Position numbers and translations under genes: made by a program. A stretch of 64,000 nucleotides of DNA, from contig CM059443.1 of the NCBI GenBank assembly GCA_030390025.1, positions 48,732,001 to 48,796,000 of the forward strand, given 5' to 3'. The DNA comes from Squalus acanthias. Its lineage: Eukaryota. The notes under the pieces were generated by a model, which saw nothing but the letters and a program-made list of their open reading frames with translations, ran no database searches and was not told the origin of the DNA. Shown piece after piece: positions 10,541-57,030 of the stretch (positions within the stretch are counted from its first letter, which is position 1; each line of letters begins with the position of its first letter).

Positions 10541-10629
10541 CTGGAACAGTGCAATGGCGAAGAAAGGAAATCGAACCAACTTTTAATGGGTACAAACTGG
10601 ACAACTGATCTGGAATCTATCAACTTTAA

Positions 10630-13352
10630 TTTTTTTTATTCATTCATGGGATGTGGGCGTCATTGACGAGGCCAACATTTATTGCCCATGCCTAATTGCC
10701 CTTGAGAAGGTGGTGGTGAGCCGCCTTCTTGAACCGCTGCAGTCCGTGTGGTGAAGGTACTCCCGCAGTGCTGTTAGGGAAGGAGTCCCAGGATTTTGAG
10801 CTAGCGACGATGAAGGATCGGCAATATACTTCTAAGTCAGGATGGTGTGTGACTTGGGGGGCAACTTGGAGATGATGGTGTTCCCATGAGCCTGCTGCCC
10901 TGTCCTTCTAGGTGGTAGAGGTCACGGGTTTGGGAGGTGCTGCCGAAGAAGCTTTGGCGAGTTGCTGCAGTGCATCTTGTAGCTGGTACACACTGCAGCC
11001 ACGGTACGCCAGTGGTGGAGGGAGTGAATGTTTAAGATGTGGATGGGCTGCCAATCAAGCGGGCTGCTTTGTCCTGGATGGTGTCGAGTGTCTTCAGTGT
11101 TGCTGTAGCTGCACTCATCGAGGCAAGTGGAGAGTATTCCATCACACTCCTTACTTGTGCCTTGTAGATGGTGGAAAGGCTTTGGTGACTAAGGAGGTGA
11201 GACACTCGCTGCAGAATACCCAGCCTCTGACCTACTCTTGTTGCCACAGTATTTATGTGGCTGTTCCAGTTACGTTTCTGGTCAATAGTGACCCCCAGGA
11301 TGTTGATGGTGGGGGATTCGGCAATGGTAATGCCATTGAATGTTAAGGGGAGGTGGTTAGACTCTCTTATTGGAGATGGTCATTGCCTGGCACTTATGTG
11401 GCGCGAATGTTACTTGCCACTTATCAGCCCAAGCCTGAATGTTGTTCAGGTCTTGCTGCATGCAGACACGGACTGCTTCATTATCTGAGGAGTTGCGAAT
11501 GGAACTGAACACTGTGCAGTCATCAGCAAACATCCCCACTTCTGTCCTTATGATGGAGGGAAGGTCATTGATGAAGCAGCTGAAGATAGTTGGGCCTAGG
11601 AAACTGCCCTGAGGAACTTTTGCAGCAATGTCCTGGGGCTGAGATGATTGGCCTCCAACAACCAGAACCACCTTCCTTTGTGATAGGTATGACTCCAGCC
11701 ACTGGAGAGTTTACCCCCTGATTCCATTGACTTCAATTTTACTGAGGTTCCTTGATGCCACACTCAGTCAAATGCTGCCTTGATGTCAAGGGCAGTCACT
11801 CTAACCTCCCCTCTGGAATTCAGCTTTTGTCCATGTTTGGACCAAGGTTGTAATGAGGTTTGGAGCTAAGTGGTCCTCGCAGAACCCAAACTGAGCATCA
11901 GTGAGCAGGTTATTGGTGAGTAAGTGCCACTTAATAGTACTGTCGACAATACCTTCCATCACTTTGCTGATGATTGAGAGTAGACTGATGGGGCGGGATT
12001 TGACCGTTTCGGATTTATACTACTTTTTGAAGACTGGACATACCTGGGCAATTTTTCACTTTGTCGGGTAGATGCCAGTGTTGTAGATGTACTGGAACAG
12101 CTTGGCTAGAGGCACGGCTAGTTCTGGAGCACAAGCCTTCAGCACGACAGCCGGGATGTTGTCGGGGCTCATAGCCTTTGCTGTATCCAGTGCGCTCAAC
12201 CGTTTCTTGATATCACGTGGAGTGAATCAAATTGGCTGAAGACTGGCTTCTGTGATGGTGGGGACTGCAGGAGGAGGCCGAGATGAATCATCCACTCACC
12301 ACTTCTGGCTGAAGATGGTTGCAAACACTTCAGCCTTGTCTTTTGCACTCACGTGCTGGGCTCTGACATCATTGAGGATGGGGATGTGCATGGAGCCTCC
12401 TCCCGTTAGTTGTTTAATGGTCCACCACCATTCACGATGTGGCAGGACTGCAGAGCTTTGATCTGATCCCTTGATTGTGGGATCGCTTCACTCTGTCTAT
12501 AGCATGCTGCTTCTGCTGTTTAGCATGCATGTATTGTAGCTTCACCAGGTTGGCACCTCATTTTTTGGTATGTCTGCTGCTGTTCCTGGCATGCTCTTCT
12601 ACACTGCTCATTGAACCGGGGTTGGTCCCCTGGCTTGATGTTAATGGTAGAGTGAGGGATATGTCGGCCCATGAAGTTACAGATTGTGATGGAGTACAAT
12701 TCTGCTGCTGCTGATGGTCCACAGTACCTCATGGATGTCCAGTTTTGAGCTGCTAGATCTGTTCTGAATCTATCCCATTTAGCACGGTGGTAGTGCCACA
12801 CAACACGATGGAGGGTGTCCTCAGGATGAAGACAGGTCCTTGTCTCCACAAGGACTGTGCGGTGGTCACTCTTACCAATACTGTCATGGAGAGATACATC
12901 TGCGACAGGTAGATTGGTGAGGACGAGGTCAAGTATGTTTCTCCCTCGTGTTGGTTCTTTCACCACCCGCCGCTGGCAGCTATGTCCTTCAGGACTTGGC
13001 CAGCTTCGTCAGTAGCGGTGCTACCGAGCCACTCGGTGATGGATATTGAAGTCGCCCACCCAGAGTACATTCTGTGCCCTTGCTACCCTCAGTGCTTCTT
13101 CCAAGTGGTGTTCAATGTGGAGGAGTACTGATTCATCAGCTGAGGGAGGGTGGTCGGTGGTAATCAGCAGGAGGTTTCCTTGCCCATGTTTGACCTGATG
13201 CCATGAGACCTCTTGGGGTCAGGGAGTCAATGTTGAGGACTCCAAGGGCCACTCCCTCCAACTGTATACCACTGTGCTGCCACCTCTGGTGGGTCTGTCT
13301 TGCCTGAGGGACAGGACATACTTAGGGATGGTGATGGAGGAGCCTGGGACAT
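10630..13352 (-). mobile_element. Degenerate LINE of a second CR1/L2-related family; duplicated at ~50995-54010
   Basis: Broken endonuclease/RT ORFs (EPTRGRNILDLVLTN, PQGSxLGP, MFADD, IYKAQVRSVMEYS). Confidence 0.9.
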
Positions 13353-13434
13353 TTCGTGAAAGAATTATTTATATTATTTATATTGAATTATTTATATTAA
13401 ATGAGTCGCATTGTTTCTAGATTGTATCACTTAC

Positions 13435-13625
13435 TTTGAGTATTTGTACGAGTTAAGTTGCTGGTCACTGAGGAGATTCCAGATGTTGAGGTGGGGGTGT
13501 CTGAAGTCTCTGCACTCGCCTCTGTCACAGTAAGGGAGATGTTTGCTGCAATCTTCCAGACAGGTTTCCCTGAATCCTGACTGTGGACAGCACAGAGATA
13601 CCTCCCAGTGTCCACCACATCCGCT
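13435..13625 (-). pseudogene. 3' remnant of receptor A V-set (D2) exon; leader, D1 and the 5' part of D2 are missing
   Basis: ADVVDTGRYLCAVHSQDSGKPVWKIAANISLTVTEASAETSD...TQ with intact donor, fused to LINE sequence at ~13625. Confidence 0.85.
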
Positions 13626-15201
13626 AATGAATCAGTACTTTGCCTTGTTGAACACCACTTGGAAGAAGCACTGAGAGTAGCAAGGGCACAGAATGTACTC
13701 TCGGTGGGGGACTTCAATGTCCATCACCAAGAGTGACTCGGTAGCACCACTACTGACCGAGCTGGTCGAGTCCTGAAGGACATAACTGCCAGTCTGGGCC
13801 TGCAACAGGTGGTGAGAGAACCAACACGAGGGAAAAACTTACTTGACCTCGTCCTCACCAATCTACCTGTCGCAGATGCATCTGTCCATGACAGTATTGG
13901 TAGCAGTGACCACCACACAGTCATTGTGGAGATAAAGTCCCATCTTCACACTGAGGACACCCTCCATCGTGTTGCGTGGTACTACCACCGTGCTAAATGG
14001 GATAGATTCAGAACAGATCTAGCAGCTCAAAACTGGGCATCCATGAGGCGCTGTGGGGCAGCAGCAGAATTGTATTCGACCACAATCTGTAACCTCATGG
14101 CCCGGCATATCCCTCACTGTACCATTACCACCAAGCCAGGGGACCAACCCTGGTTCAAAAAGGAATGTAGAAGAGCATGCCAGGAGCAGCATCAGGCATA
14201 CCTAAAAATGAGGTGCCAACCTGGGGAAGCAGCAACACAGGACTACATACATGTTAAAAAACGGAAGCAGCATGTTATACACAGGGCTAAGCGATCCCAC
14301 AATCAACGGATCAGATCAAAGCTCTGCAGTCCTGCCACATCCAGTCGTGAATGGTGGTGGACAATTAAACTACTAACTGGAGGAGGAGGCTCCATGAATA
14401 TCCCCATCCTCAATGATGGTGGAGCCCAGCACGTGAGTGCAAAAGACAAGGCTGAAACATTTGCAGCCATCGTCAGCCAGAAGTGCCGAGTGGATGATCC
14501 ACATCGGCCTCCTGCTGAGGTCCCCACCATCACAGAAGCCAGTCTTCAGCCAATTCGATTCACTCCACGTGATATCAAGAAATGGCTGAGCGCAGTGGAT
14601 TCAGCAAAGGCTATGGGTCCTGAGAACATCCCGGCTATCGTGCTGAAGACTTGTCTTCCAGAACTAGCCACGCCTCTAGCCAAGCTGGTCCAGTACAGGT
14701 ACAACACTGGCATCTATCCGACAATGTGGTAAACTGCCCAGGTATGTCCTGTCCACAAAAAGCAGGAGAAATCCAATCTGGCCAATTACCGCCCCATCAG
14801 TCTACTCTCAATCATCAGCAAAGTGATGGAAGATGTCATCGACAGTGCTATCAAGCGGCACTTACTCACCTATAACCTGCTCACTGATGCCCAGTTTGGG
14901 TTCCGCCAAGACCACTCTGCTCCCGACCTCATTACAGCCTTGGTCCAAACATGAACAAAAGAGCTGAATTCCAGAGGTGAGGTGAGAGTGACTGCCCTTG
15001 ACATCAAGGCAGCATTTGACCGAGTGTGGCATGAAGGAGCCCTAGTAAAACTGAAGTCAATGGGAATCAGGGTGAAAACTCTCCACTGGCTGGAGTCATA
15101 CCTAGCACAAATGAAGATGGTTGTGGTGATTGAGGGTCAATCATCACAGTCCCAGGACATCGCTGCAGGAGTTCCTCAGGGCAGTGTCCTAGGCCCAACC
15201 A
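13626..15201 (+). mobile_element. Second-family LINE, 5' part (continues at 18011-18969)
   Basis: ORF ends ...[10 protein letters not shown] and resumes FSCFINDL at ~18012. Confidence 0.9.
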
Positions 15202-22837: not shown

Positions 22838-23502
22838 ACCTGCCGTCCATGGTCCGTGCGGTCTCTGCCTAGATATCAAGAGAGGAGATCACGTTTGATG
22901 GGTTCACTTCCAGTGGGGGACAGATAATGAAAGCGGACTGTCTCGTTACATCAGATAAAGCTCCAGGAGCTTTAGAACAGACACAGTGTTGGCTGAGAGG
23001 ATTGTACTGAAAGATTGCAATTACTTACATTTTACTCACTGAATTTCACTTTTGCCTCCATCACTAAGAATACAGAAAATTAAACATGTGAAGCATCAGT
23101 AACATAAGATTCAAACAATAATAAACATCTGTAAATGGATTTGCTATTTTTAACCCCTGGATTTGAATCCGTCTCTCTACTCTTCAATTTTCGCTCTCAC
23201 CATCTCCCATCACTCTCCCTTTCCCTCACTCGCCCTCTATCTTTCCCTCCCTCCTTTCTCTCTCTCTATATGTCTGTCTCTCTCACTCTACCCCTCTCTC
23301 TATCCCTCCTCCTCTCTCTGGACTGTAAGGGTCATTTAAGAAATGATTTACATTCAACTTCCTGTGTCAGCCACACATTAGCCCCCTGCAGTTATTAAAG
23401 AAATGCAACTGGTAAATGTTTCATTGAATGAGAAAAACTAAACAGAAAGTCTGAATGAAAACTGAGTGAATCACATCCCTGCCACTACCGATGCTGAGGA
23501 TC
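22838..23502 (-). CDS. Receptor B cytoplasmic exons, tyrosine-free (microexon from 23502; 23352-23385; 23029-23063; remnant from 22868)
   Basis: Homologous to the A exons. Read-through gives GSSASVVAGM* (stop 23471-23473); spliced gives GSSAS(VV)-GANVWLTQEVE-LMEAKVKFSE*. The splice path actually used is uncertain. Confidence 0.5.
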
Positions 23503-24538: not shown

Positions 24539-24943
24539 CGGGGCTTCTTTTAAACTGAGCCGGTTCCCGCTATTTTACTCTGCGGGGCTCCTTTTAAACT
24601 GAGCCGGTTCCCACTCTTTTACTCTGCGGGGCTTTTTTTTTAAACTGAGCCGGTTCCCGCTCTTTTACTCTGCGGGGCTTTTTTTTTAAACTGAGCCGGT
24701 TCCCGCTCTTTTACTCTGCGGGGCTTTTTTTTTAAACTGAGCCGGTTCCCGCTCTTTTACTCTGCGGGGCTTTTTTTTTAAACTGAGCCGGTTCCCGCTC
24801 TTTTACTCTGCGGGGCTTTTTTTTTAAACTGAGCCAGTTCCCGCTATTTTACTCTGCGGGGCTCCTTTTAAACTGAGCCGGTTCCCGCTCTTTTACTCTG
24901 CGGGGCTCCTTTTAAACTGCGCCGGTTCCCGCTCTTTTACTCT
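24539..24943. repeat. Tandem repeat, ~9 copies of ~45 bp (gcggggct(t)naaactgagccggttcccgctcttttactct)
   Basis: Direct reading; lies just upstream of CR1 ORF1. Confidence 0.95.
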
Positions 24944-30579: not shown

Positions 30580-30696
30580 CCTTGGCAGCTTGCCGTTTCC
30601 TTCGGATTATGCAAAGTGCCCCATCAATGCAAACTAGCACAACCAAGTACAGAACCAAAACACACATACGTATGTCACTGCAGCTGGTGTAAGGAC
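30580..30696 (-). CDS. Receptor B transmembrane exon (charged: Arg and Asp)
   Basis: ctctgcag / GTAAGC, 117 nt, phase 1-1; GPYTSCSDI-R-MCVLVLYLVVLVCI-D-GALCII-RRKRQAAK. Confidence 0.85.
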
Positions 30697-30940: not shown

Positions 30941-31402
30941 TTTGAGTATTTGTACAAGTTATGCTGCTGGTCACTGAGGAGATTCCAGATGTTGAGGTGG
31001 GGGTGTCTGAAGTCTCTGCACTCGCCTCTGTCACAGTAAGGGAGATGTTTGCTGCAATCTTCCAGACAGGTTTCCCTGAATCCTGACCGTGGACAGCACA
31101 GAGATACCTCCCAGTGTCCACCACATCCGCTGAGTGAATAGTAAGGTTGTGAGACTGGGGTCTAGCAGTAGGATTGTCTGAGCTTTGGGCAGAGATTCTT
31201 TGTGACGACCTTCTATCCACACAGCAGCGTGTGTTAATTTTTGCCTCCTTTTCCTCAATGTGAACAGAGTGCAGACACTTGGAAACGTTTCCAGATCTGA
31301 TCCAAAACAGAGTGAAGGGGAGCTTTTTTGTATTCTCAAACTGGCAGGGTAAAGTCACATTCACTCCCTCTGAGGAGATTTCTTCAGTAGAAAATATTTC
31401 AT
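30941..31402 (-). CDS. Receptor B D2 exon: V-set Ig domain plus Ser/Thr stalk
   Basis: 462 nt, phase 1-1; VTLPC, LFWIR, LTIHS, DTGRYLC V-frame motifs; extra cysteines KC and RCC. Confidence 0.92.
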
Positions 31403-31689
31403 CTGAATGTATAAACAACATTGACAAGAACATTTATTAATATAATAATCTTCAGTGCGGTACTTTGTCAAACGATTTCCTAAAGTCCATGTACAGTATA
31501 TTCCCTGCATTCCTCCATTTACCATGTCTGTTACCTTCTCGACGGTTTTTCAACCTCAATCATCCTCTTTGAAATCCGTGCCAGCTACTTATCACTATTT
31601 TCTCTTTATCTATATACATGGTTATTTCATCTTAATAAAGACCCTAAAGTTTTCCCAATGACAGCTATCTGCCCTAAAACCTCCTCTAA

Positions 31690-31869: not shown

Positions 31870-32268
31870 CACTCTGGATTATCACAAAGAACAAGTCGTG
31901 GTTTTCACATCCCTCTCCTGACAGTGTGAGCCAGGACGGACACTTCGATGATCCTCCGTCTGTGGAATCCTGAGCCGAGCAGGTAAATACCATCGAGTTA
32001 AACGTCTCCACATCGAATGTCAGAGACTGAGACTCCATTTGTTCTTCGTTTAATTTGCATTTACTAGACTTTAGTTTGCTGGGCCTTTTTCTCAACTTAG
32101 GACTGATGTTTTCACCAAATTTCCTTTCCTTCTTACATTTTATTTTGTCCATTTCTGCTCCGAGATCAGTGGAGCTGCACAAGGTTACTTCATCCCCAGC
32201 ACCAGTGGGCATGTTGCACTGCAGAGTGGTGACATCTCCTGGTCCTCGGGAGAAGAGATAAGTGGATC
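31870..32268 (-). CDS. Receptor B D1 exon: divergent Cys-rich Ig-like domain
   Basis: ttccctgcag / GTACGT, 399 nt, phase 1-1, open; PGDVTTLQC...SLTFDV...VFTCSA...LFFVII. Lacks the canonical C-strand Trp. Confidence 0.85.
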
Positions 32269-37845: not shown

Positions 37846-38169
37846 AAGTCTGTTCATTATCAATTATTATTGGGCAACTTGAGCATCTGACCGGCACAAT
37901 TCCCCCTGTAATGGCCCTGACAGACTTCACCCAGAAACTCTCCACTCACTGACACAGATGTGTCAGTACTGCAGATCACTATTCCACTAGAGCTCGAATA
38001 AACACAGAACCACATCTCCCAGTCAGACTCGATTGTAACTCAGACATCAGCCGTGTTGGACTGAGGATAGGAGCAGACGTCACTTATCATTTCAGGAACT
38101 CAGTCTGCAGACAGCACCCACCACACACAGTCTGTTTAGAATTACCAGCAGCCAAATTACACAGAGACT

Positions 38170-39602
38170 GGTTACAAACCCCCCATTACAGTCTGGATAG
38201 AGACCCCCCCATTACAGTCTGGATAGAGACCCCCCCCCATCACAGTCTGGATAGAGACCCCCCCCATTACAGTCTGGATAGAGACCCCCCCATTACAGAC
38301 TGGATAGAGACCCCCCCCCATTACAGACTGGATAGAGACCCCCCCCATTACAGTCTGGATAGAGACCCCCCCCATTACAGACTGGATAGAGACCCCCCCA
38401 TTACACAGTCTGGATAGAGACCCCCCCCCCCCATTACACAGTCTGGATAGAGACCCCCCCCATTACAGACTGGATAGAGACCCCCCCATTACAGTCTGGA
38501 TAGAGACCCCCCCCATTACAGACTGGATAGAGACCCCCCCATTACAGTCTGGATAGAGACCCCCCCATTACACAGTCTGGATAGAGACCCCCCATTACAG
38601 TCTGGATAGAGACCCCCCCCCATTACACAGTCTGGATAGAGACCCCCCCCCATTACAAACTGGATAGAGACCCCCCCCCATTACACAGTCTGGATAGAGA
38701 CCCCCCCATTACAGTCTGGATAGAGACCCCCCCCCATTACACAGTCTGGATAGAGACCCCCCCCATTACAGTCTGGATAGAGACCCCCCCCATTACAGTC
38801 TGGATGGAGACCCCCCCCCATTACAGACTGGATAGAGACCCCCCCCATTACAGACTGGATAGAGACCCCCCCCCATTACACAGTCTGGATGGAGAACCCC
38901 CCCATTACAGTCTGGATAGAGACCCCCCCATTACACAGTCTGGATAGAGACCCCCCCCATTACAGACTGGATAGAGACCCCCCCCCCATTACACAGTCTG
39001 GATGGAGACCCCCCCATTACAGTCTGGATAGAGACCCCCCATTACAGTCTGGATAGAGACCCCCCCCCCCCATTACAGTCTGGATAGAGACCCCCCATTA
39101 CACAGTCTGGATAGAGACCCCCCCATTACAGTCTGGATAGAGACCCCCCCCATTACAGTCTGGATAGAGACCCCCCCCATTACACAGTCTGGATGGAGAC
39201 CCCCCCCATTACAGTCTGGATAGAGACCCCCCCCCCATTACACAGTCTGGATAGAGACCCCCCCCCCCCCATTACACAGTCTGGATAGAGACCCCCCCCC
39301 ATTACAGACTGGATAGAGACCCCCCCCATTACACAGTCTGGATAGAGACCCCCCCCATTACACAGTCTGGATGGAGACCCCCCCCATTACACAGTCTGGA
39401 TAGAGACCCCCCCCATTACAGTCTGGATAGAGACCCCCCCCATTACAGACTGGATAGAGACCCCCCCCATTACACAGTCTGGATGGAGACCCCCCCCATT
39501 ACAGTCTGGATAGAGACCCCCCCCCCATTACACAGTCTGGATAGAGACCCCCCCCCATTACAGTCTGGATAGAGACCCCCCATTACACAGTCTGGATGGA
39601 GA
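38170..39602. repeat. Minisatellite, roughly 45-50 copies of ~28-34 bp (C)nATTACA(CA)G(T/A)CTGGATAGAGA
   Basis: Direct reading; variable C-run length; lies in the leader-D1 intron of receptor B. Confidence 0.97.
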
Positions 39603-40714
39603 ACCCTACCGCCCCCTCCACTCACAGTGTCAGTTCCCATTTCTTTGCAGAATAATCGTGGAATGGGTGGGTCTGTAATGTACAGAAGGACCTGAGCTGC
39701 TCCATTTTGCCAGAGTTGCTGAATTCCAGCCCTGGTCCATGTGGTGTTGTGGATCCCGCCCAGTGTGGTTTCCACCCTTTACACTTCTCCGCAGTATTTA
39801 TTGGTGTGAGGCTCAGCTGAGTCATCAACCATAATTGTTACTTTAGAGTTCACAGTGATCGAGTCTGAGCACGAAATCTTACACAGAATTACATAGAATG
39901 TACGGCACAGAAACAGGCCATTCGGCCCAACTGCTCCGTGCCGGTGTTAATGCTGCACAGGAGCCTCTTCCCACCCCTCTTCATCAAACCCTGTCAGCAA
40001 ATCCTTCTCACGCTTCTGAATCTTCCACCATTTAATTCTTAAAGTGAGATATGATTCTGCAGTAAGCGAACTTGGGATAGGATCAGCGCTGTTCTCGTAC
40101 TTCATCTCTGCGCTGTTTTAAAACAGGTGTTGAACCAAAGATGTTTGCAGCACTGAAGGAAACCGTTCGGCCCATCGTGCCAGTGCTGGCTCTTTGCCAG
40201 AGCAAACCCATTGCCCCCCACTCTCCCCACAGCCCTGTATCTTCCTCTGCTTCAAATGTTTTTCCAGTTTTACTTCAAAAGATGTAAAGGTCTCTGCCTC
40301 AACCACCCGGTGTGATAAATTTTTGGGAGCCAAGGGAATTAAGGGATATGGGGATAGTGCAGGAAGGTGGAGTTGAGGTAGAAGATGAGCCAAGATTTTG
40401 TTGAATGGCAGAGCAGGCTTGAAGTGCCAAATGGCCTGCTCCAGCTCCTATTTCTTATGTAAAACAACCCTCTGTGTGAAGAATTTTTTCCTAACCTGTC
40501 TCCTCACTCTCAGTGGCACTTTTGAACTGACGCCCCATGATTAAACCATGTTAAAATGGCCCAGCGAGGACTGTGATGCAAGCTCATTAAACGTCCACAC
40601 GAAAACAGCACTGATATCTTTCAATTCTTATATTTCTCCATTGGGATATAGATAGAAACTGATATTTCCAGATAAGAAATATGCTGCAGGTTAACGTAAA
40701 ATATTAATCCTTAC

Positions 40715-40769
40715 CTGTAGCATGTTGGAACAGAAGGAAAAGACCCACAAACAAAGCACCGAGCGCCAT
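40715..40769 (-). CDS. Receptor B signal-peptide exon
   Basis: MALGALFVGLFLLFQHAT-G with a phase-1 GTAAGG donor compatible with D1 at 32268. Confidence 0.85.
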
Positions 40770-43700
40770 TTCACATTCCTAGCTGGTTCGGAAGCTGGGT
40801 GGCTGTTTCACCATCACACTCTGATCTGTGAGAGAAAATGAGAAGTGCGACCTTTAGAGGTGGTGAAAGAGAAAATCATCTTCCTGTTTGATCAGCTCAA
40901 CTACAACAACAACAACTTGAATTTATATAGCCCCTTTAATGTAGTAAAACATCTCAAGGTGCTTCACAGGAGTGTTACAAAACAAAATTTGACACCGGAC
41001 CACATTAGGGCAGATGACCAAAAGCTTGGTCAAAGAGTTTTGAGGAGCGTCTTGAAGCAGAAAAGAGAGTTAGAGAGGTGAAGAGGTTTAGGCAGGGAAT
41101 TCCAGAGCTTAGGGCCTCGGCAGCTGAAGGCACGGCCACCGATGGTTGAGCGATTGAAATCGGGGATGCTCAACAGGGCAGAATTAGAGGAGCGCAGATA
41201 TCTCGGAGGGTTGTGGGGCTGTGGGTGATTACAGAGATAGGGAGGGGTGATGCCATGGACGGACTTGATAACAAGAATGAGAATTTTAAAATCCAGGCGT
41301 TAATTAACCGGGAGCCAACGTAGGTCAGGTTGATTTGTGAACGGGACTTGGTGCGAGTTAGGACATGGGCAGCAGAGTTATGATGACTCAGATGATATGT
41401 GTGCACTGACATTGTATTAATGGGCCTGGGGACAGCGATTGGGCTGTTCGTTCAACCCTCCAACCACAGAAGGGACTGGAGAGGTGAGACGCTCTGAAAT
41501 ACAAAGTGTATACTATGAGCGTGCCACTGTGTACCACAGTGATAGTGAGTAACACACTCGGCAGCCGTGTCATTTTCTACTGCCCACATAGAACAACACC
41601 TAGTGCAGGAAAGATTGTGAAACACTTACTGAGACATAGAAGGAGGTTTTACATTAACCCACCCACCGGCAAAGTGACAGGATCGGGTGCAACACTGGTT
41701 TTACATCTCGCCCAATTGTACCCTCCATTGAGGTCTGTGTAGAGTAATATTGGGCAGGGTGTAAATGTGGCATTATACTGTGGGGCTCCCCCCGCACCCC
41801 CCTGCCCCCCCCTGCCCCGTTAACTTAAAATGACCCTCAGCTGCTCACCATACATGAAGCATTTGTTCCGTAAGATAAGTGAATCTGGGTGTAAGCTCTA
41901 GTTCCTGAAACTATGGAAACAGAATTTAATTGGACAGGATCAAAGTGGGTTCACTGGTCACTTTGGGGGTCAGCAAGCAATAGCAGACAGAAAGTTTCCC
42001 TGTACTGTAGTCCTGGCCGCAGGAGATTAGATACATTTGCTAAGATAGAGCAACTTGTACACAGTCTGCGAAGGGGGATGAAGAAAGAAAAGAAGAAAGA
42101 AAGCTAGAAAGAAAGACAGAAAGACAGGCAGACAGCCTTGCATTTATAACACGGCATTCATGACCTCAGGGCGTCTCAAAACGCTTTACAGCCAATTATT
42201 TACTTTTTGAAGTGCAGTCACTGTTGTAATGTGGGAAACACGGCAGCCAATATGCACACAGCAAGCTTCCACAAACAGCAATGTGATAATGACCAGACCA
42301 ACTGTTTTTAGTGATGCTGATTGAAATAACTGCTGGCCAGGACACCGGGGAGAACTCCCTTGCTCTTCTTTGAAATAGCGCAGTGGGATCTTTCTCATCC
42401 ACCTGAGCGGGCAGACGGGGCCTCGGTTTCACGTCTCATCCGAAAGACGGCACCTCAAACAGTGAAGGAGGCCATTCAGCCCATTGTGCCTGTGGGTAGA
42501 AAGAGCTATCCAATTAGACCTAGTCCCCTGCTCTTTCCCCGTAGCCCTGCAAATTTGAAATAAGGTTCCCACCTATTTCTAGTGGGCGTGCTGGAGGCCA
42601 TTTTGCTGCCCATCGAGAATTGAGTTGGGCAGACTTCAGGAATCCATTGGGTGGGAGATGGTTTTTCATCTTCATCTGATTTGCAGTGGGATGGAAATCA
42701 CCTCCTGGTGTCTAAAGTGAAGGTTATGTTCCGGAAAGAGTAACGGTCATAAGGAGAGCGAGGCCGGCCTGCGAATGACGCGACAGCGGGGCCACAGATC
42801 CACCTATCCCTGCTCCTATTTCTTATGTTCTTATGTCAGTAATCGGTTAGTGACGGCCGAATGCGCTTCCTGTCTGGGCGCAAAGGTCACGGAATGTGCT
42901 TCCTGTCCTGGATCAAAGGTCAGCAAAGGGTTGGGTCGGGGATAAAATAGCAACTCATGATTTGTATAACAAATCTCATGATTTTTAAGAGTTTGTCTCT
43001 GATTTATGAGACGGTGGGGTTGGCATTACTGCTCACACCCACTTCTACACCAACAAGCTGTAAATAGCTGAGCCTTTTAGACTTGCTTTACTGCCACTCA
43101 TCAGTTAGAATTTCCAATCATCACACACTTCCTGCCACTTTCGTACTGAGTTCATTTGGATTCACTTCACACCAGTCCTTGTTGTGTGTGGTGTTCATAT
43201 TGTAAATAACACCCATTGTTACAGAGTTAGGTGCTGAAGCCTAGGGCTGGACAATGAGCCAAATGCCAGGGTTATGAGGGTAAATTCACTGACTCTATCC
43301 CCTCCCCGCACCCCGCCAGCAGTGAGCTCTGCTTGAAGGAGACACAATCTATCAGAGGGCCACAGTGCTAACCCCTGACCCCTGTTTGAGCATGGCTGCC
43401 CACAAGGAGTGTGGGATTGGTGAATCTAGCGTGAAAGTCCTTTTATCTTACTGAGCCATGCATTGTTTAACATTTCCAACATTAAAATATAAACTTCTAA
43501 TTTCAATGTAGTTACACTGCTTTATGCTTTTCAAAATACTATTCAGAGATCGGCTGGGGGCAGACAATTTGTACCAAACTTTCCCTTACACAATCGTGAA
43601 TTTCCACCTCAGCATCCTCATAAATTGGGTTCCGCGTCCCCCTCCCACTTCCCCCTGAGTCTGATTGCAGTGTCTTCACTGAGATCAGTTCATTCATTCA

Positions 43701-46021
43701 ATTAGTTTGGATTCCTGCTGGACAGATAACACAACTCGTTGTTTAGTTATAATTTTTAAACAGTGTTTATTGAATGACTTTCAATCGCACAAGTTCCATT
43801 TTGTGTCTCACACACCAGCGATGTGTTGTTCTGTCTAAACAGAGTCCAAGGGGGTGAAATTGCTCTTCACCAGTGGCGCGAAACTCAATCACGAATCGAG
43901 CGACCGTTTCATTTCATTTCCATCAAAGTCGAAACTGGCGAGGACCAATTTTAGACCCGAACGTGTAGCTGTTACATTCTTCAACTGTGGGTTCCCATCG
44001 CCCACATCCCGTGTCGGTGAGAGTGGAAATCTCACGTTGAGTCTGTCTCCGTGTTTTGTGTCGGTCGTCACAAAACATTAGAACAATCTGTGAAAGCCAA
44101 GGAGCTGCCGCCAGCGGTTTAATATCATTAGCGGAACACTGGGAGAAGATTTCTCCGCACACAATCCTGCGCTTCAAGCAGCCTCAGTGTTACAATCTGT
44201 GAAAACACACTTGCATTCAAGGGGGTTGGTTGCACACCTGCATTCTGCGTGGTTTCCCTTCCCTGAAAATTAATGAATGGATTGAAAGAAGAAAGCCTTG
44301 CATTTCTATAGCGCCTTTCACGGCCTCAGGACGTCCCAAAGCGCTTTAAAGCAACAAAGTACTTTTTGAAGTGTAGTCACTGTTGTAATGTAGGAAAAGT
44401 GGCAGCTAATTTGCACACAACAAGATTCCACAACAGCAATATGATAATGACCAGATAATCTGTTCTCAGTGATGTAGGTTGATCAATAAATATTGGCCAG
44501 GACACCAGGGATAGCCCCCCTGCTCTTCTTCAAAATAGTGCCATGGGATCTTTTACGCACACCTGAGAGAGCAGACAGGTCTCAGTTTAACGTCTATCGA
44601 AAGACGTCACCTCTGACAGTGCAGCACTCCCTCAGCACTGCACTGGAGTGTCAGCCTAGATGATGTGCTCAGGTCTCTGGAGTGCCATTCAAATTTCTGG
44701 ATATGCATTCTGAGCTTGTCTGAGATTTCACAGCGCAAGCGTGAATCCGTAACATCATCTCTACATGGTCCCACGTTTAGCATGGCTCCCTGTATTCTAC
44801 TCCAACAACGCACCTTGATCCCAGCTTCTGAAGAGCTGCCCCAACGACACCAGTGTGATTTTCTGTTTCCCATACCAGCCGTCGCTACAGCTTCCCCATC
44901 CACCCCACCCCCGCCCGACTCACACTGGGAATTGAGTGCTGTGCTGTGAGACCATGTGTGAGAACTGGGCTGGGCTGGACTGGGCCAAACACATTTCGCG
45001 TCGCTATGCTGCAAGCAGTGGAGAGAGGAGACTGTCATCCAGGCATTCTGGACTGCATTCAAAGCCAGATGCCAGAGAGAAAAAGTGAAAGGGTATCGTG
45101 CTAAAACTGGCGCCAGCTTAGCACGGACTGGCACTCTGACCCAGAGAGGTCACAAGGTCAGGTGGTGCGGGAAAAGTTGGCTCTGCACCAAACCCGTGCT
45201 GTACCAGACCTGGGCCTGCTCGACACTGACACTGGGGCCTAGAAATTGGCTCCGGATGCAGCACACACCGCACACACCCAATGGGGCCGGCGGCAGGAAC
45301 ACGGCACAATGGACCCCCGGCCTCATTAGTTTATCAGTAGCGAGCTGCAGGCTCCAGTCACGGCCCCAGAGGCAGCTCACAGGAGGAGGGAGCATGATTG
45401 GCCGACTGGGACCTGAGCTGATTCCGGGATGGGGGGGGGGGACAGAGCGATGAGGCAAATGGGAGGGGGGCACGCGAGCAGTGTCTGGTAGTGGCTGACG
45501 GTTTTAATGTGGGGCCGGGAGGAGCACGCCTGCTTCCTCCTGATTCACATTCAGGTAAGGATTTGTTTTAATACTTACTCTTTTGGTGGCAGCCTCCAGC
45601 GGTCTCTTTAAGGACCCCTGGTTAGGCCTGGTGAGGCCGCGTGGAGACCTGGTCACCCTGAATTCAGCAGGCCCAAGGCCGGCAGCGTTCAGGAAAAGTC
45701 AGTCTCCGGCTTGGGTCCCAGAACAAGCAGTAGGCCCCTCATTAGCATATTCAAGGTGCCTAACGCCTGTTTCAGGCGATCGCCAGGGACGCCTCTACAG
45801 TGCCCGAACCAATAAGGCATCAGACGTGTTTCCGATGCTATTCGTGCATGGAGGGTTGGCCCCCTAAATTGGACCTCTTTTGCACCCATTATCCACCCAG
45901 AAAAACGGTGCAACGATGTCCAATTAACCCCCACCCCGGGTGTCTGCAGTGGGAAAGTGTTCAATACCCAGTGCTGACCATGATGAGTGTAAAATATATG
46001 TATTTTTTAAATCTTGTACCA

Positions 46022-46323
46022 CTATGGGTTTAAACAAGTTATCCGTTGCCTTTCTCCTGTTACTCGATTATGCTCAGGTTCTTCCATTTTAGCATAAATA
46101 GGATTTTCTTCCATTTTTAACGGGCCAGGTCGTGGATCATCTTCCTCCAGCTGGGACTGTGTCACCGCGTCTACCGGGCAGCCTATCAAAGAATAAATCT
46201 GCTCATTGGACAAAGCAACGGGATCCTCCTTACTGTCCTCTTTGGGCTGTGATTGGCCGTCTGGTTTGAGTTCAGTAGCTGAAGAGGTTTCAACCTGCCG
46301 TCCATGGTCCGTGTGGTCTCTGC
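46022..46323 (-). CDS. Receptor C last coding exon (QIYSLI, NPIYAKM; C-terminus extended relative to A)
   Basis: Homolog of 5599-5849; a 1-nt indel gives ...MEEPEHNRVTGERQRITCLNP*. Confidence 0.75.
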
Positions 46324-46483
46324 CTAGATATTAAGAGAGGAGATCACGTTTGATGGGTTCACTTCCAGTGGGGGACAGATATTGAAAGTGGACTGTCTCG
46401 TTACTTGAGATAAAGGTCCAGGAGCTTTAGAACAGACACAGTGTTGACTGGGAGGATTATACTGAAAGATTGCAACGACTTAC

Positions 46484-46518
46484 ATTTTACTCCCTGGATT
46501 TCAGTTTTGCCTCCATCA
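46484..46518 (-). CDS. Receptor C 35-nt cytoplasmic exon
   Basis: Homolog of 6010-6044, splice sites intact. Confidence 0.75.
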
Positions 46519-49500
46519 CTAGGAAAACAGAAATTAAAACATGTGAATAATGAGTAACATAAGATTCAAACAATATTAAATCGTTGTAAGTGGAGACTAG
46601 GTGAGGTCATTTTCTCCCCAGAGCCTGGATTTGAGTCCAGCCCAGACTGAAATTCTCTCATTCATTTTCTCTCTCTCTGTCTATCTCCCTCTGACTCTCT
46701 GATTGTCTCTCCGACTCTCTTTCTCTCTGTCTCTCTCTCTCGCTGTCTCTCTCTGCCTGTCTCCCTGTCTCTCTGTCTGTCTATCTTGCTGTCTCTCTCC
46801 ATTCTCTCTGTCTCTATGTCTGCCTCTCTCCNNNNNNNNNNNNNNNNNNNNNNNNNNNNNNNNNNNNNNNNNNNNNNNNNNNNNNNNNNNNNNNNNNNNN
46901 NNNNNNNNNNNNNNNNNNNNNNNNNNNNNNNNNNNNNNNNNNNNNNNNNNNNNNNNNNNNNNNNNNNNNNNNNNTGTCTGTCTCTCACTGTCTCCCTCGC
47001 TGTCTCTCTCCATTCACTCTGTCTCAGTCTCTTTGTGTCTGTCATTCCCTCCCTGTCTCTATGTCTGTCTCACTATGTCNNNNNNNNNNNNNNNNNNNNN
47101 NNNNNNNNNNNNNNNNNNNNNNNNNNNNNNNNNNNNNNNNNNNNNNNNNNNNNNNNNNNNNNNNNNNNNNNNNNNNNNNNNNNNNNNNNNNNNNNNNNNN
47201 NNNNNNNNNNNNNNNNNNNNCTCTCTTTCTCTGTGTTGCTCTGTCTCTCTCTCTGTCTCTCTCTCCCTATCTCTATCGCTCTTTGTCTCTCTCTCTCTCT
47301 CACTTTGTCTCTCTCACTGTCTTTGCTGTGTGAGCAGTCCTCTCTGCAATGAGTTTTCACAGTCCCAATCCAGTTCCTTGCCTAAAACTGCGCATCATTC
47401 AGTAAAATATTTGGACTAAATTGATCATTATGGTCAGATAAGCCAAAATATTTTCCTGAGAAATTTATAAAAAAACTTCACACGGGCACAGTGAAAGGAG
47501 CTATTCTGATGTTGGGATAAAGGAGCACTAGCAGGTCAGAGGGCAGAGTGATTTACACGGCCTCCAGCCATTCTATACCTGACTTCGAACTGTTCGGTTG
47601 TGAGATTGGCTGCAAAACCTGGAAATGTTTTATGCTGGGTGGTGGAATAGATTAGTACGGCCCTTTAATATTTTAGGATCTGCCAAGTCCAAATTACTAG
47701 GAATAAAAGTCCTCTTTCTATATCTCTCTGGTCTCTATCTCTGTCTGTCTCTGTCGCACTCTCTGTCTGTCTCTGTCTCTTTCTCTCTAAGGGTCCTTGA
47801 TGAAATGAGGATTGAGAGCAGTTTAGGATTCAGCAAAGGAGGACAAAGGGATTAATTAAGAGGGGGGAAATAGAGTATGAGAGTAAGCTTGCAGGGAACA
47901 TAAAAACTGACTGTAAAAGCTTCTATAGATATGTGAAGAGAAAAAGATTGGTGAAGTCAAGTGTAGGTCCCTTGCAGTCAGAATCAGGGGAATTTATAAT
48001 GGGGAACAAAGAAATGGCAGACCAATTAAATACATACTTTGGTTCTGTCTTCACAAAGGAGGACACAAATAACCTCCCAGAGATGTCAGGGAACATAGGG
48101 TCTAATGAGAGGGAGGAACTGAAAGAAATCAGTATTTGTACGGAACTGGTGTTAGGGAAATTGATGGGATTGAAGGCCGATAAATCCCCAGGGCCTGATA
48201 ATCTACATCCTAGGGTACTTAAGGAAGTGGTCCTAGAAATAGTAGATGAATTACTGGTCATCTTCCAAAATTCTATAGACTCTGGAACAGTTCCCATGGA
48301 TTGAAGGGTAGCTAACGTTACCCCACTATTCAAAAAAGGTGGTAGAGAGAAAACGGGGAATTATAGACCGGTAAGCCTGACATCGGTAGTGGGGAAAATG
48401 CTAGAGTCCATTATAAAAGATGTAATAGCAGAGCACTTGGAAAACAGTGACAGGATCGGTCAAAGTCAACATGGATTTACAAAAGGTAAATCATGCTTGA
48501 CTAATCTACTGGAATTTTTTGAGGATGTAACTGGTAAAATAGATAAGGGAGAACCAGTGGATGTGGTGTATTTGGACTTTCAGAAGGCTTTCAATAAGGT
48601 CCCGCATAAGAGATTAGCGTGTAAAGTTAAGGCACATGGGATTGGGGGCAGGGTACTGACTTGGATAGAGAACTGGTTGGCAGACAGGAAGCAAAGAGTT
48701 GGAATGAACGGGTCTTTTTCCGAGTGGCAGGCAGTGACTAGTGGGGTACCACAGGGATCGGTCCTAGGACCCCAGCTATTCACAATATATATATTAATGA
48801 TCTAGACGAGGGAACTAGATGTAATATCTCCAAGTTTGCAGACGACACAAAGCTGGGTGGGCGTGTGTGCTGTGAGGAGGATGCCGAGAAACTCCAGTAT
48901 GATTTGGATAGGTTGGGTGATTTGGCAGATGCATGGCAAATGCAGTACAATGTGGATAAATGCGAGGTTATCCACTTTGGTGGCAAAAACAGGAAGGCAG
49001 ATTATTATCTGAACGGCAATAGATTGGGAGAAGGGGAAGTGCAACGAGACCTGGGTGTCCTTGTGCACCAGTCGCTGAAGGTAAGCATGCAGGTGCAGCA
49101 GGCGATTAAGAAGGTAAATGGTATGTTGTCCTTCGCAGCGAGAGGGTTCGAGTACAGGAACAAGGATGTCTTGCTGCAGTTGTACAGAGCCTTGGTGAGA
49201 CCACATCTTGAGTATTGTGTGCAGTTTTGATCGTCTTATCTGAGGAAGGATGTTCTTGCCATGGAGGGAGTGCAGCGAAGATTCACCAGACTGATACCTG
49301 GGATGGCAGGAATGACGTATGAGGAGAGATTGGGTCGATTGGGCTTGTACTCGCTGGAGTTTAGAAGAATGAGAGGGGATCTCATTGAAACTTATTAAAT
49401 TCTAACAGGACTAGACAGACTAGGTGCAGGAAGGATGTTCCCGATGGCCGGGGAGTCCAGAACCAGGGGTCATAGTCTAAGGATAAGGGGTAAGCCATTT

Positions 49501-50127
49501 AGGACAGAGATGAGGAGGAATTTCTTCATGCAGAGAGTGGTGAACCTGTGGAATTCTCTACCACAGAAGGCAGTTGAGGCCAACTCATTAAATATATTCA
49601 CGAAGGAGTTAGATATATTTCTTAAGGCTAAAGGGATTAAGGGATATGGGGAGAAGGCAGGGACAGGGTACTGAATTTGGATGATCAGCCATGATCTCAA
49701 TGAATGGCGGAGCAGGCTCGAGGGGCCGAATGGCCTACTCCTGCTCCTATCTTCTATGATTCTATGATTCTATGAATTTGGTCATCTCGTTCCAGTTTGT
49801 AGCTCGTGTGAGCCACAGTACAAAACTACCCCTAAATTGTCACTTTCACTCAAACAGGCCATGAGGTGTGAGAAGTGAAATGTCCGAGCTCCCTCCTGAG
49901 TTTGGAGTTGAGGAGCATTGTTGGGACAGTCCAGAGGGAGCTTTATGCTGCACCTAATCTGGAGTGCTCCAAATGATACTGTGTGGCCACAGTGGAAAAG
50001 TAACCCACTTGCAGAGTGGGCTCCCCTCACCTTCATTACATTAACAATCTCCGAACCCTCCATCCCAAAACAAACCCATGGCCAGTGTTGAACGTTGCCA
50101 GGGGCCGACAGCTGTCACTCTGCTTAC

Positions 50128-50562
50128 CCTTTGACCATTGACTCTTCGATCAAACAGTACACATGCTCTGTAGAGTCAGACTTTGGGCCAGTGCTCTCCA
50201 TTCCTTCACCAGGCCTTGGCTGGCTCGATGGCGTTGGAACTCTCGTCACCGAGTACGCAACATGCTCGTTGTCATCACTCTGATCCCTTCTGGGAACCAC
50301 AGAGTACGGGAAACCTAGACAGAAGGACGGGTAGACGAGGTGTGCTTTTAGTTTCAACTCTCAAAGGGACAGGCTCGGAAGAGCTGGGCAGTAATTCTAG
50401 TCACTTACATTCAGCCACCTGTGTCAGCTGCACATCACCAGCCCTACAGTTAGTAAAGAAAAGCAACCTGTAAATGTTCCATTAAATGAGGAAAACTATA
50501 CAGAAAGTCTGCCCGAAAACTGAACGAATCCCATCCCTACCTGGATCCTGGTGCTGAGGATC
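50128..50562 (-). CDS. Receptor C cytoplasmic exons (50541-50562, 50409-50443, 50128-50314)
   Basis: Same lengths (22, 35, 187 nt), phases and splice sites as in A; FPYSVV, VAYSVT and HVYCLI retained. Confidence 0.78.
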
Positions 50563-50672
50563 CTTCACAACACATGCCATAAGATTGGAAAGATAAATTT
50601 AAAAGTCTTTGTAAGGAGTCTGCACTTACAATTTTCTAGATTTAGATCAAACATTTTAAAGCTCTTGCTTAC

Positions 50673-50798
50673 CTTTGGCAGATAGTCGTTTCCTTCGGAT
50701 TATGCAAAGTGCCCCAACAATGCAAAGTGCCCCAACAATGCAAATGATCACAACCGCACACGCTATGGATACTTTCACAGGTGTGGCAGTGTAAGGAC
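50673..50798 (-). CDS. Receptor C transmembrane exon (uncharged core, 18-nt internal duplication)
   Basis: GPYTATPVK-VSIACAVVIICIVGALCIVGALCII-RRKRLSAK, 126 nt, phase 1-1. Confidence 0.85.
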
Positions 50799-50872
50799 CT
50801 GCAGAGGAGAAGCAACATTAAGTTCAGTCTGTGCAATCCCGTGTTATATGTACAGCTGATCACACTGGTTAC

Positions 50873-50904
50873 CTGGCTGAGGAACAGACATTTCCGAGTA
50901 GAAT
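50873..50904 (-). pseudogene. Frameshifted (32-nt) copy of the linker exon
   Basis: CTCAGCCAG versus CTCAGCCCAG in the three 33-nt copies. Confidence 0.7.
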
Positions 50905-53114
50905 CTGGAAAAGTGCAATGGCGAAGAAAGGAAATCGAACCAACTTTTAATGGGTACAAACTGGACAACTGATCTGGAATCTATCAACTTTAATTTTTTT
51001 TATTCATTCATGGGATGTGGGCGTCATTGACAAGGCCAACATTTATTGCCCATGCCTAATTGCCATTGAGAAGGTGGTGGTGAGCCGCCTTCTTGAACCG
51101 CTGCAGTACGTGTGGTGAAGGTACACCCACAGTGCTGTTCGGGAAGGAGTCCCAGGATTTTGATCCAGCGACGATGAAGGTTCGGCGATGTATTTCCAAG
51201 CCAGGATGGTGTGTGACTTGGAGGGTAACTTGGAGATGATGGTGTTCCCATGCGCCTAATGCGCTGTCCTTCTAGGTGGTAGAGGTCGCGGGTTTGGGAG
51301 GTGCTGCCGAAGAAGCCTTGGCGAGTTGCTGCAGTGCATCTTGTAGCTGGTACACACTGCAGCCACGGTACGCCAGTGGTGGTAGGAGTGAATGTTTAAG
51401 ATGTGGATGGGGTGCCAATCAAGCGGGCTGCTTTGTCCTGGATGGTGTCGAGCGTCTTCAGTGTTGTTGGAGCTGCACTCATCGAGGCAAGTGGAGAGTA
51501 TTCCATCACACTCCTTACTTGTGCCTTGTAGATGGTGGAAAGGCTTTGGTGAGTAAGGAGGTGAGACACTCGCTGCAGAATACCCAGCCTCTGACCTACT
51601 CTTGTTGCCACAGTATTTATATGGCTGTTCCAGTTACGTTTCTGGTCAATAGTGACCCCCAGGATGTTGATGGTGGGGGATTCGGCAATGGTAATGCCGT
51701 TTATTGTTAAGGGAAGGTGGTTAGATTCTTTCTTGTTGGAGATGGTCATTGCCTGGCACTTATGTGGCGCGAATGTTTCCTGCCACTTATCAGCCCAAGC
51801 CTGAATGTTGTCCAGGTCTTGCTGCATGCGGGCACGGACTGCTTCATTATCTGAGGGGTTGCGAATGGAACTGACCACTGTGCAGTCATCAGCAAACATC
51901 CCCACTTCTGACCTTATGTTGGAGGGAAGGTCATTGATGAAGCAGCTGAAGATGTTTGGGCCTAGGACACTGCCCTGTGGAACTCCTGCAGTGATGTCCT
52001 GGGGCTGAGATGATTGGCCTCCAACAACCAGAACCACCTTCCTTTCTGATAGGTATGACTCCAACCAGTGGAGAGTTTACCCCCTGATTCCATTGACTTC
52101 AATTTTACTCAGGTTCCTTGATGCCACACTCGGTCAAATGCTGCCTTAATGTCAAGGGCAGTCACTCTCACCTCCCCTCTGGAATTCAGCTTTTGTCCAT
52201 GTTTGGACCAAGGTTGTAATGAGGTCTGGAGCCGAGTGGTCCTTGCGGAACCCAAACTGGGCATCAGTGAGCAGTGCTGCTTAATAGTACTATCGACAAC
52301 ACATTCCATCATTTTGCTGATGATTGAGAGTAGACTGATGGGGCAGGAATTGACCGTTTTGGATTTGTACTGCTTTTTGAAGACAGGACATACCTGGGCA
52401 ATTTTCCACTTTGTCGGGTAGATGCCAGTGTTGTAGCTGTACTGGAACAGCTTGGCTAGAGGTGCGGCTAGTTCTGGAGGACAAGTCTTTAACACGACAG
52501 CCGGGATGTTGTCGGGGCCCATAGCCTTTGCTGTATCCAGTGCGCTCAGACATTTCTTGATATCACATGGAGTGAATCAAATTGGCTGAAGACTGGCTTC
52601 TGTGATGATGGGGACTGCAGGAGGAGGCCGAGATGAATCATCCACTCACCACTTCTGGCTGAAGATGGTTGCAAACACTTCAGCCTTGTCTTTTGCACTC
52701 ACGTGCTGGGCTCTGACATCATTGAGGATGGGGATGTGCATGGAGTCTCCTCCCGTTAGTTGTTTAATGGTCCACCACCATTCACGATGTGGCAGGACTG
52801 CAGAGCTTTGATCTGATCCATTGGTTGTGGGATCACTTTACTCTGTCTATAGCATGCTGCTTCTGCTGTTTAGCATGCATGTATTGTAGCTTCACCAGGT
52901 TGGCACCTCATTTTTTGGTACGTCTGGTGCTGTTCCTGGCATGCTCTTCTACACTGCTCATTGAACCAGGGTTGGTCCCCTGGCTTGATGTTATTGGTAG
53001 GGTGAGGGATATGTCGGCCCATGAAGTTACAGATTGTGGTGGAGTACAATTCTGCTGCTGCTGATGGTCCACAGTACCTCATGGATGTCCAGTTTTGAGC
53101 TGCTAGATCTGTTC

Positions 53115-53432
53115 ACAGAATCACAGAATCACAGAATCCCCACAGTGCAGATAGAGGCCATTTCGGCCCATCGAGCCTGCACCGACACATATCCCACCCT
53201 ATCCCCGTAACCCCACGTATTTAATCCCCCTAACACTAAGGGTCAATTTTTATCATAGCCAAATCAACCTAACCCGCACATCTTTGGACTGTGGGAGGAA
53301 ACCGGAGCACCCGGAGGAAACCCACGCAGACACGGGGAGAATGTGCAAACTCCACACAGACAGTCACCCGTGGCCGGATTCGAACCCGGGTCCCTGGCCC
53401 TGTGAGGCAACAGTGCTAACCACTATGCCACC
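53115..53432 (-). mobile_element. HE1-like V-SINE, absent from the paralogous site at ~12765
   Basis: tRNA head tggcatagtggttagc...gggttcgaatcc, V-domain gtctgcgtgggtttcctccggg, (ttctgtga)n tail. Confidence 0.85.
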
Positions 53433-54091
53433 ATTTAGCACGGTGGTAGTGCCACACAACACGATGGAGGGTGTCCTCAGGATGAAGACGGGTCCTTGTC
53501 TCCACAAGGACTGTGCGGTGGTCACTCTTACCAATACTGTCATGGAGAGATGCATCTGCGACAGGTAGATTGGTGAGGACGAGGTCAAGTATGTTTCTCC
53601 CTCGTGTTGGTTCTTTCACCACCCGCCGCTGGCAGCTATGTCCTTCAGGACTCGACCAGCTCGGTCAGTAGCGGTGCTACCGAGCCACTCGGTGATGGAT
53701 ATTGAAGTCGCCCACCCAGAGTACATTCTGTGCCCTTGCTACCCTCAGTGCTTCTTCCAAGTGGTGTTCAACGTGGAGGAGTACTGATTCATCAGCTGAG
53801 GGAGGGTGGAAGGTGGTAATCAGCAGGAGGTTTCCTTGCCCATGTTTGGTCTGATGCCATGAGACCTCTTGGGGTCAGGGAGTCAATGTTGAGGACTCCA
53901 AGGGCCACTCCCTTCCGAATGTATACCACTGTGCTGCCACCTCTGGTGGGTCTGTCTTGCCTGAGGGACAGGACATACTTAGGGATGGTGATGGAGGAGC
54001 CTGGGACATTTCGTGAAAGAATTATTTATATTATTTATATTGAATTATTTATATTAAATGAGTTGCATTGTTTCTAGATTGTATCACTTAC

Positions 54092-55691: not shown

Positions 55692-56174
55692 TTTGAGTAT
55701 TTGTACGAGTTAAGCTGCTGGTCACTGAGGAGATTCCAGATGTTGAGGTGGGGGTGTCTGAAATCTCTGCACTCGCCTCTGTCACAGTAAGGGAGATGTT
55801 TGCTGCAATCTTCCAGGCAGGTTTCCCTGAATCCTGACCGTGGACAGCACAGAGATACCTCCCAGTGTCCACCACATCTGCTGAGTGAATAGTAAGGTTG
55901 TGAGACTGGCGTCTAGCAGTAGGATTGTCTGAGCTTTGGGCAGAGATTCTTTGTGACGACTTTCTGTCCACACAGCAGCGTGTGTTAGAATGTGCCTTAT
56001 AATCCTCAATGTGAACAGAGTGCAGACACTTGTTGACGTTTCCAGATCTGATCCAAAACAGAGTGAAGACGAGGTTTTTTGTATTCTCAAACTGGCAGGG
56101 TAAAGTCACATTTTCTCCCTTTGACACTGTCAGCGACCAGGAGTTTTCTTCAGTAGAAAATATTTCATCCGAAT
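55692..56174 (-). CDS. Receptor D D2 exon: V-set Ig domain plus stalk
   Basis: 483 nt, open, phase 1-1; GENVTLPC, LFWIR, DTGRYLC. Confidence 0.9.
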
Positions 56175-56625: not shown

Positions 56626-57030
56626 CACTCTGGATTATCACAAAGAACAAGTCGTGGTTTTCACATCCCTCTCCTGACAATGTGAGCCAGGACGGACACT
56701 TCGATGATCCTCTTTCTGTGGAATCCTGAGCCGAGCAGGTAAATACCGTCAAGTTAATCGTCTTCACATCGAATGTCAGAGACTGAGACTCCGTTTGTTC
56801 TTCATTTAATTTGCATTTTCTACACTCTGGCTTACTCTGCCTGTTTGTCCAATTAGGACTGATATTTTCACAAAATTGCATTTCCTTCTCTTTATTCTCA
56901 CATGTATTGTCAATTTCTGCTCCGAGATCAGTGAAGCTGCACAAGGTGACTTCATCCCCAGCACCAGTGGTCACGTTGCACTGCAGAGTGGTGACATCTC
57001 CTGGTCCTCGGGAGAAGAGATAAGTGGATC
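56626..57030 (-). CDS. Receptor D D1 exon: Cys-rich Ig-like domain (leader expected right of the window)
   Basis: 405 nt, open, phase 1-1, same splice sites as 31870-32268. Confidence 0.85.

Follow-up and report, generated by a model that had tools for sequence, protein, structure and literature searches.

Genes B and D, two paralogs in a 64,000-nucleotide window of the Squalus acanthias genome (the window being the whole stretch of DNA analysed here), encode receptor-like proteins with two outer domains, D1 and D2. Their D1 exons are nearly alike at both ends and strongly different in the centre, which raises the question of why the centre alone should differ. The original prediction, whose two divergent peptides lie where it placed them and are encoded on the minus strand (Table 1), called this patch hypervariable and proposed diversifying selection or gene conversion at a ligand-binding surface; it also noted that differences in D2 are clustered. 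We surveyed the copies of the D1 exon in the genome and compared their exons, introns, predicted structures and homologs.

The gene cluster and its outer domains

A DNA search of the genome with the D1 exon returned 12 places, and a protein search returned the same 12, in two blocks on contig C19. Copy b4 is a frameshifted mosaic and was omitted from every D1 rate test because of its frameshifts. The blocks are 1.6 Mb apart and each is terminated by an assembly gap (G000:C19:48643206 and 50528385); they may represent duplicates, one mis-ordered array or two haplotypes. Copy a1 has no last exon, and an orphan last exon was found at 50515754. Neighbours of the cluster include an exon of PSMA4 (L053:5103-5375) and an ICE2/NARG2-like exon (L035:7806-8300), which we take to correspond to human 15q genes, distant from the known paired-receptor clusters. 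Fragments of retroviral RNase H, integrase and env were found at L090:178-3015. Within the window, positions 1-13500 and 40460-54160 form a segmental duplicate (96-98% identity, period ~40 kb), and tandem repeat arrays are located at 38100-39610, inside intron 1 of B, and at 24540-24940 and 6180-6990.

Table 1. Coordinates of the gene B and gene D features in the window.
Feature	Position	Strand	Remark
Leader exon of gene B	40715..40769	-	
D1 exon of gene B (second coding exon)	31870..32268	-	Cys-rich, predicted beta-sandwich; spliced ends in contigs
K-type patch of gene B (D1 residues 40-69)	32063..32152	-	Basic loop; two Cys and, on the better reading, three codons lost
D2 (V-set) and Ser/Thr stalk exon of gene B	30941..31408	-	
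Predicted BC (CDR1-like) loop of D2, gene B	31317..31334	-	Varies among paralogs
Predicted C'C'' (CDR2-like) loop of D2, gene B	31230..31259	-	Most variable stretch across paralogs
Transmembrane exon of gene B with Arg and Asp, short-tail type	30580..30696	-	
Final coding exon of the short tail, gene B	23032..23063	-	
D1 exon of gene D	56626..57030	-	
E-type patch of gene D (D1 residues 40-71)	56819..56914	-	Near-neutral loop; 3 Cys; extra N-W-T glycan site
D2 and stalk exon of gene D	55692..56174 (3' end approximate)	-	
Uncharged transmembrane exon and long tyrosine-bearing tail exons of gene D	46050..50808 (span approximate)	-	

Eight of the 12 genes encode an uncharged membrane segment followed by a long tyrosine-bearing tail, and four (B, a2, b1 and b4) encode a membrane segment with Arg and Asp followed by a short tail; both tail types are present in other sharks too. 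Near-identical outer domains occur on long- and short-tail genes of this one cluster, B and the long-tailed b2 differing by four bases in D1 and one in D2, and the 3' part of B is common to the short-tailed a2. The layout is that of paired receptors, and the two tail types would be expected to signal in opposite directions. None of the five tyrosines in the gene D tail fits the strict ITIM consensus, and the first tyrosine fits it in the homologs P0012, P0016, P0020 and P0022. Each short-tail gene is followed by a 3' fragment comprising a D2 piece, a full long-type membrane exon and a tail, with neither leader nor D1 (after B: window 13400-13640, 10320-10430, 9780-10220 and 5610-5850, minus strand). 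These fragments may be remnants; alternatively, each may serve as a second 3' end through which the same outer domain could be spliced to either kind of tail.

The 22 distinct homologs in the databases all come from sharks, and none carries an informative name. A profile search of 1.84 billion representative proteins gave seven matches, five of them shark members of the family and two long repetitive proteins, and no credible non-shark member. On these results B and D belong to an unnamed, shark-only family of paired receptors. Architecture varies within it: Heptranchias P0001 carries two D1-D2 units ahead of a short-type membrane segment, and the sawshark models (P0002, P0004, P0008 and P0010) include D1-only forms. 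A literature search that included a query by six NCBI locus numbers, with most subscription journals and supplements outside its scope, found no paper on the family. The family is apparently undescribed; the underlying process, in which conversion levels paralogous exons while one patch remains different, is already known.

D2 is a V-set Ig domain. D1 had no Pfam match at threshold; its best hit in a sequence search of the PDB had an E-value of 0.43, its best Atlas score was 0.87, under the useful level of that resource, and a search among short proteins gave no match. With the D1 model as query, Foldseek returned nothing at E<=0.001 and a wide structural search returned generic beta-sandwiches only (best Z 7.1). 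D1 thus appears to be unlike any named domain.

Two forms of the D1 patch and substitution in D1 and D2

Alignment of all 12 copies showed, in the 11 intact ones, two forms of the patch, each nearly constant: K, in four copies (a4, B, a7 and b2), and E, in seven (a1, a2, a3, D, b1, b3 and b5). Within-form pN in the patch was 0.014 among the K copies and 0.018-0.020 among the E copies, so that over the 12-copy survey the patch is dimorphic instead of hypervariable. All 17 fixed differences between K and E fall inside the 99-base patch and none in the remaining 306 bases of the 405-base exon; 0 of 200000 random placements were equally tight. The charge shift and the two extra cysteines described originally were recovered, with a net charge of +9 and one patch Cys in B and of -1 and three in D, and the E form has an N-W-T glycan site that the K form lacks. 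B and D differ by a net 6 bases in the patch, as expected from the reported 2-codon indel, but judged against b4 and the outgroups this is better explained by the loss of three codons in K and of one codon in E.

The form of the patch is independent of the tail: of the K copies B is short-tailed and the other three are long-tailed, and E occurs with both kinds of tail. The four K copies are recent duplicates and therefore count as one evolutionary event. Three of the four K genes have an altered D2 acceptor together with a 15-base deletion, and K may be a weakened lineage. In these three (a4, B and b2) the usual acceptor reads AC and the deletion is at the start of the V domain. An in-frame AG follows 6 bases downstream (in gene B at 31402; window 31402-31410), and this second acceptor is used in one contig of unassigned form; in copy a3 the acceptor reads TG.

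Contigs from three studies, drawn from runs guessed, not recorded, to be RNA, join D1 to D2 at the predicted splice sites, and those of two of the studies (runs X2, X4 and X9) join D2 to the short-type membrane exon, again at predicted sites. The long D1 contigs in X1, X2 and X4 are E-type, and X2 also contains a 169-base K-type piece with two differences from B. The contig in X9, from a more distant species, differs from B at 37 of ~400 D1 bases, with exons 5-9% apart. Among the patch sites listed, it has the E letter at seven and lacks it at eight, the two kinds being interleaved. Because this contig is intermediate and interleaved, K and E would both derive from a basic, Cys-complete ancestor, and its pattern allows the patch to have changed faster than the background.

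D1 was modelled as a weak beta-sandwich (mean pLDDT 51.6) in which the patch is a low-confidence loop between strands at residues 27-33 and 69-74, pLDDT being low at residues 37-53 and 58-66. In the two-domain model D1 was unfolded, with pLDDT <50 for residues 13-163, so disulfides cannot be read from it. The K form has lost Cys54 and Cys70 together; the three patch cysteines are kept in 18 of 20 database proteins, and Hemiscyllium P0022 lacks the same two. In Heptranchias, Cys31 and Cys73 were lost together. These paired losses suggest two disulfides, Cys54-Cys70 and Cys31-Cys73, and loss in a pair suggests in turn that the K protein stayed under selection. From the weak model and the joint losses, we consider with moderate confidence that the patch is an exposed, disulfide-tied insert in a beta-sandwich. 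The D form of D1 has nine cysteines and D2 has five, odd counts that hint at an interdomain bond. The sawshark paralogs P0003 and P0005 have no F-strand Cys (D1 position 99) and so may do without the disulfide that is usual in Ig domains.

A comparison of B with D counted 16.5 replacement and 3.5 silent differences in the patch (sites ~66-68 and 14-20, respectively), giving a dN/dS of 0.96-1.55 (kappa 1-3) with binomial p of 0.48-0.76. Across K x E pairs, pS and pN were 0.20-0.28 and 0.23-0.25 in the patch, and 0.031-0.037 and 0.036-0.038 outside it. Silent divergence is thus raised about 6-fold in the patch, as is replacement divergence, which is the outcome that the original prediction had named as speaking against diversifying selection. 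Comparison of site models M2a and M1a, using our own code, was not significant for the whole of D1 (p=0.76, 11 copies) or for the patch (p=0.17). Per-site lists of selected codons were set aside, the neutral class having collapsed so that every variable site was flagged. The rates thus give no support for diversifying selection in the D1 patch; with 14-20 silent sites the patch gives low power in both directions, and mild positive selection may have escaped notice.

The D2 loops gave a different result. With loop borders taken from the P0011 model (BC, C'C'' and FG, 23 codons in total), the 12 copies have 21 replacement changes at 49 sites and one silent change at 17 within the loops, and 27 replacement changes at 227 sites and 10 silent at 83 outside them (silent total 11 at ~100), so that the reported clustering of D2 differences in loops is borne out by the copy counts. 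Among the eight non-K copies, replacement changes numbered 14 of 49 in the loops and 17 of 227 elsewhere; the loop excess over the silent rate has p=0.003, and p=0.025 once multi-base changes are counted once. M2a was preferred to M1a (p=2e-5 and 6e-4), values that are inflated by recombination, and replacement and silent counts over the whole of D2 were not clearly different (p 0.05-0.21). The CDR1- and CDR2-like loops of D2 are therefore likely to be under diversifying selection, and make a better case for it than the D1 patch.

Probable gene conversion and the spared centre of the exon

The introns provide a background with which the patch can be compared. Between K and E genes, no alignment is obtained for intron 2 or for most of intron 1. 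In the stretch of intron 1 beside the leader (~40400-40700), B and D differ at 34 of 172 bases (~20%), compared with 3 of 163 between a2 and D within E and 3 of 222 between B and a4 within K; the leader exons of B and D differ at 2 of 55 bases. Divergence in the patch is indistinguishable from that of the intron (p=0.42), whereas the remainder of the exon diverges far less (p=3e-7), the exon ends being 3-4% apart between K and E. The anomaly therefore lies in the exon ends, and the patch shows the age of the lineages. The near-identity of exon ends and adjacent intron described originally holds for the ends and for ~75 intron bases upstream and ~45-60 downstream of the D1 exon, but not for the introns farther out.

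Further signs of exchange are found among the copies. Both ends of the gene B D1 exon are levelled with the E-type copies in the alignment, two sites outside the patch, one on each side, are polymorphic in both K and E, and two copies are mosaics: b4, and a7, in which promoter and leader are E-type but the intron and D1 are K-type. There is a strong case that gene conversion levelled the exon ends and the 45-75 adjoining intron bases. Conversion had been proposed at the outset and is supported, though in the opposite sense, the ends having been converted while the patch was left. K and E are two old gene lineages, of which the patch appears to keep the full-age divergence of ~20%.

The spared centre may be accounted for as follows. 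An old duplication would have given rise to the K and E lineages, which diverged by ~20% at silent, replacement and alignable intron sites. Conversion between the lineages would have evened out the exon except for the patch, selection would have removed conversions that crossed the patch, since two loop forms would bind differently, and recombination would have reshuffled the D1 forms with the D2 variants and the tails, much as in mammalian paired receptors. Taken whole, from the levelled exon with its patch at full lineage age to differently binding loops and the likely selective removal of crossing conversions, this reading has in our view about an even chance of being right. That selection keeps the two loop forms apart is a claim of moderate to weak strength.

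The same history could also have left the patch unselected, if the loop is weakly constrained and early changes together with the two indels came to block conversion tracts; we regard this as possible, if on the improbable side. It agrees with a patch dN/dS of ~1, with the equality of patch and intron divergence, and with damage to some copies (the a3 acceptor and the b4 frameshift), and PMC3924837 describes conversion as being stopped by substitutions and indels. The patch is also the least conserved part of D1, its amino-acid distance between shark species being 0.73 against 0.42 for D1 elsewhere, with length changes in several lineages, and this poor conservation and the low pLDDT of the loop fit a relaxed loop. 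In eight paralog pairs from three other sharks, the patch did not hold a significant excess of the differences (p 0.19-0.77). However, tracts should cross the centre of a ~530-base homology island most often. Neutral simulation of such a 530-base island under 48 settings gave an interior peak of this size in at most 8 of 400 runs, ~5% or less of the runs with a matching total, and divergence peaks of this kind are treated as a sign of selection against conversion in PMC3924837. The simulation included neither an indel barrier nor purifying selection on the exon ends, each of which would make such a peak more probable under neutrality, and the patch had been picked post hoc; its support for selection is therefore modest. 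The paired loss of two cysteines, which suggests that the K protein stayed selected, and the high uniformity inside each form also argue against an unselected remnant.

Under the original prediction's own version, positive selection would have split the loops rapidly after the exon had long been kept uniform over its whole length, so that the patch is young and accelerated. The intermediate, interleaved X9 contig, with changes in both K and E and exons only 5-9% from B, is compatible with this, as are the many changes that alter charge (+9 versus -1) and the different loop net charges among sawshark paralogs (0, +3 and +6). We nevertheless consider it rather unlikely, since replacement changes are not in excess over silent ones, the site model was not significant, and divergence stands at the intron level. 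Import of the patch from a distant donor gene was rejected, the genome searches by DNA and protein having returned the same 12 D1 places only, with no more distant D1 donor among them. An imported patch or an assembly artefact is very improbable overall. The two blocks 1.6 Mb apart do end at gaps, so that some copies could be alleles or misplaced, but the K genes have old introns of their own on both sides of D1, and K patches were found at four places spread over the two blocks, and again in an independent run.

Known systems and meaning for the family

By analogy, the locus resembles a conversion-bounded divergence peak inside a paired-receptor cluster. The red/green opsin genes at exon 5 and the RHCE/RHD pair, as presented in PMC3924837, likewise have a short divergent stretch, silent sites included, between conversion-levelled flanks. 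In the opsins of that account it is known which sites matter for function, and levelling extends over whole introns, whereas in the shark 45-75 intron bases only are levelled and the role of the patch is putative. Mammalian paired receptors (Siglec-5/14, Siglec-11/16, CD300A/CD300C, the CEACAM1 paralogs and CEACAM32) share with the shark cluster a clustered arrangement, near-identical outer domains on opposite tails, pseudogenes and partial escape from conversion. The shark genes differ from them in having two forms of an outer loop, each on both tail types; beyond a generic V domain no sequence kinship was found, D1 being unlike named domains.

Two other groups invite comparison. Shark D2 has Trp-Ile at the C strand in all copies shown, whereas a Cys beside the C-strand Trp is typical of the V domain in the MDIR/CD300/TREM/pIgR group. 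No hit was named MDIR, CD300 or pIgR among 16 and 22 homolog hits, a separation made by hit names, and a pIgR match to the query reached an E-value of 0.003 over ~50 residues only. The skate MDIR/CD300/TREM/pIgR group (PMC3031540) likewise consists of multigene Ig receptors of cartilaginous fish, some of them activating and others inhibitory. Gene B has, like the NxxR-type FcR-gamma-coupled receptors (LILRA2, NKp46 and Xenopus XFL TM1) covered in PMC2413239, an Arg at the outer end of the membrane segment and a short tail, with an inner Asp in addition. However, B has a Ser three places before the Arg and matches neither the NxxR motif nor the classical FcR membrane motif exactly. Membership in the MDIR/CD300 or NxxR-type families is not supported by these comparisons.

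Speculatively, K could be a polyanion-binding form and E a neutral, glycan-bearing one. On the broadest proposal, which we hold as doubtful and offer tentatively, the paired-receptor family near PSMA4 would have a swappable, disulfide-tied D1 loop, polycationic or neutral and glycosylated, whose forms are selected apart against constant conversion. Combined with diversified V loops and with activating or inhibitory tails, this would make up a recognition code of two modules, encoded in the germline and driven by pathogens.

An apparently hypervariable patch between two paralogs can be old divergence rather than fast change. Cartilaginous-fish innate receptor families are poorly charted, and the results point to the likely working surfaces of this shark family, namely the D1 loop with its two forms and, in D2, the CDR-like loops. 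The cluster also supplies matched natural variants for comparing binding, with B and D differing in the loop and B and b2 in their tails.
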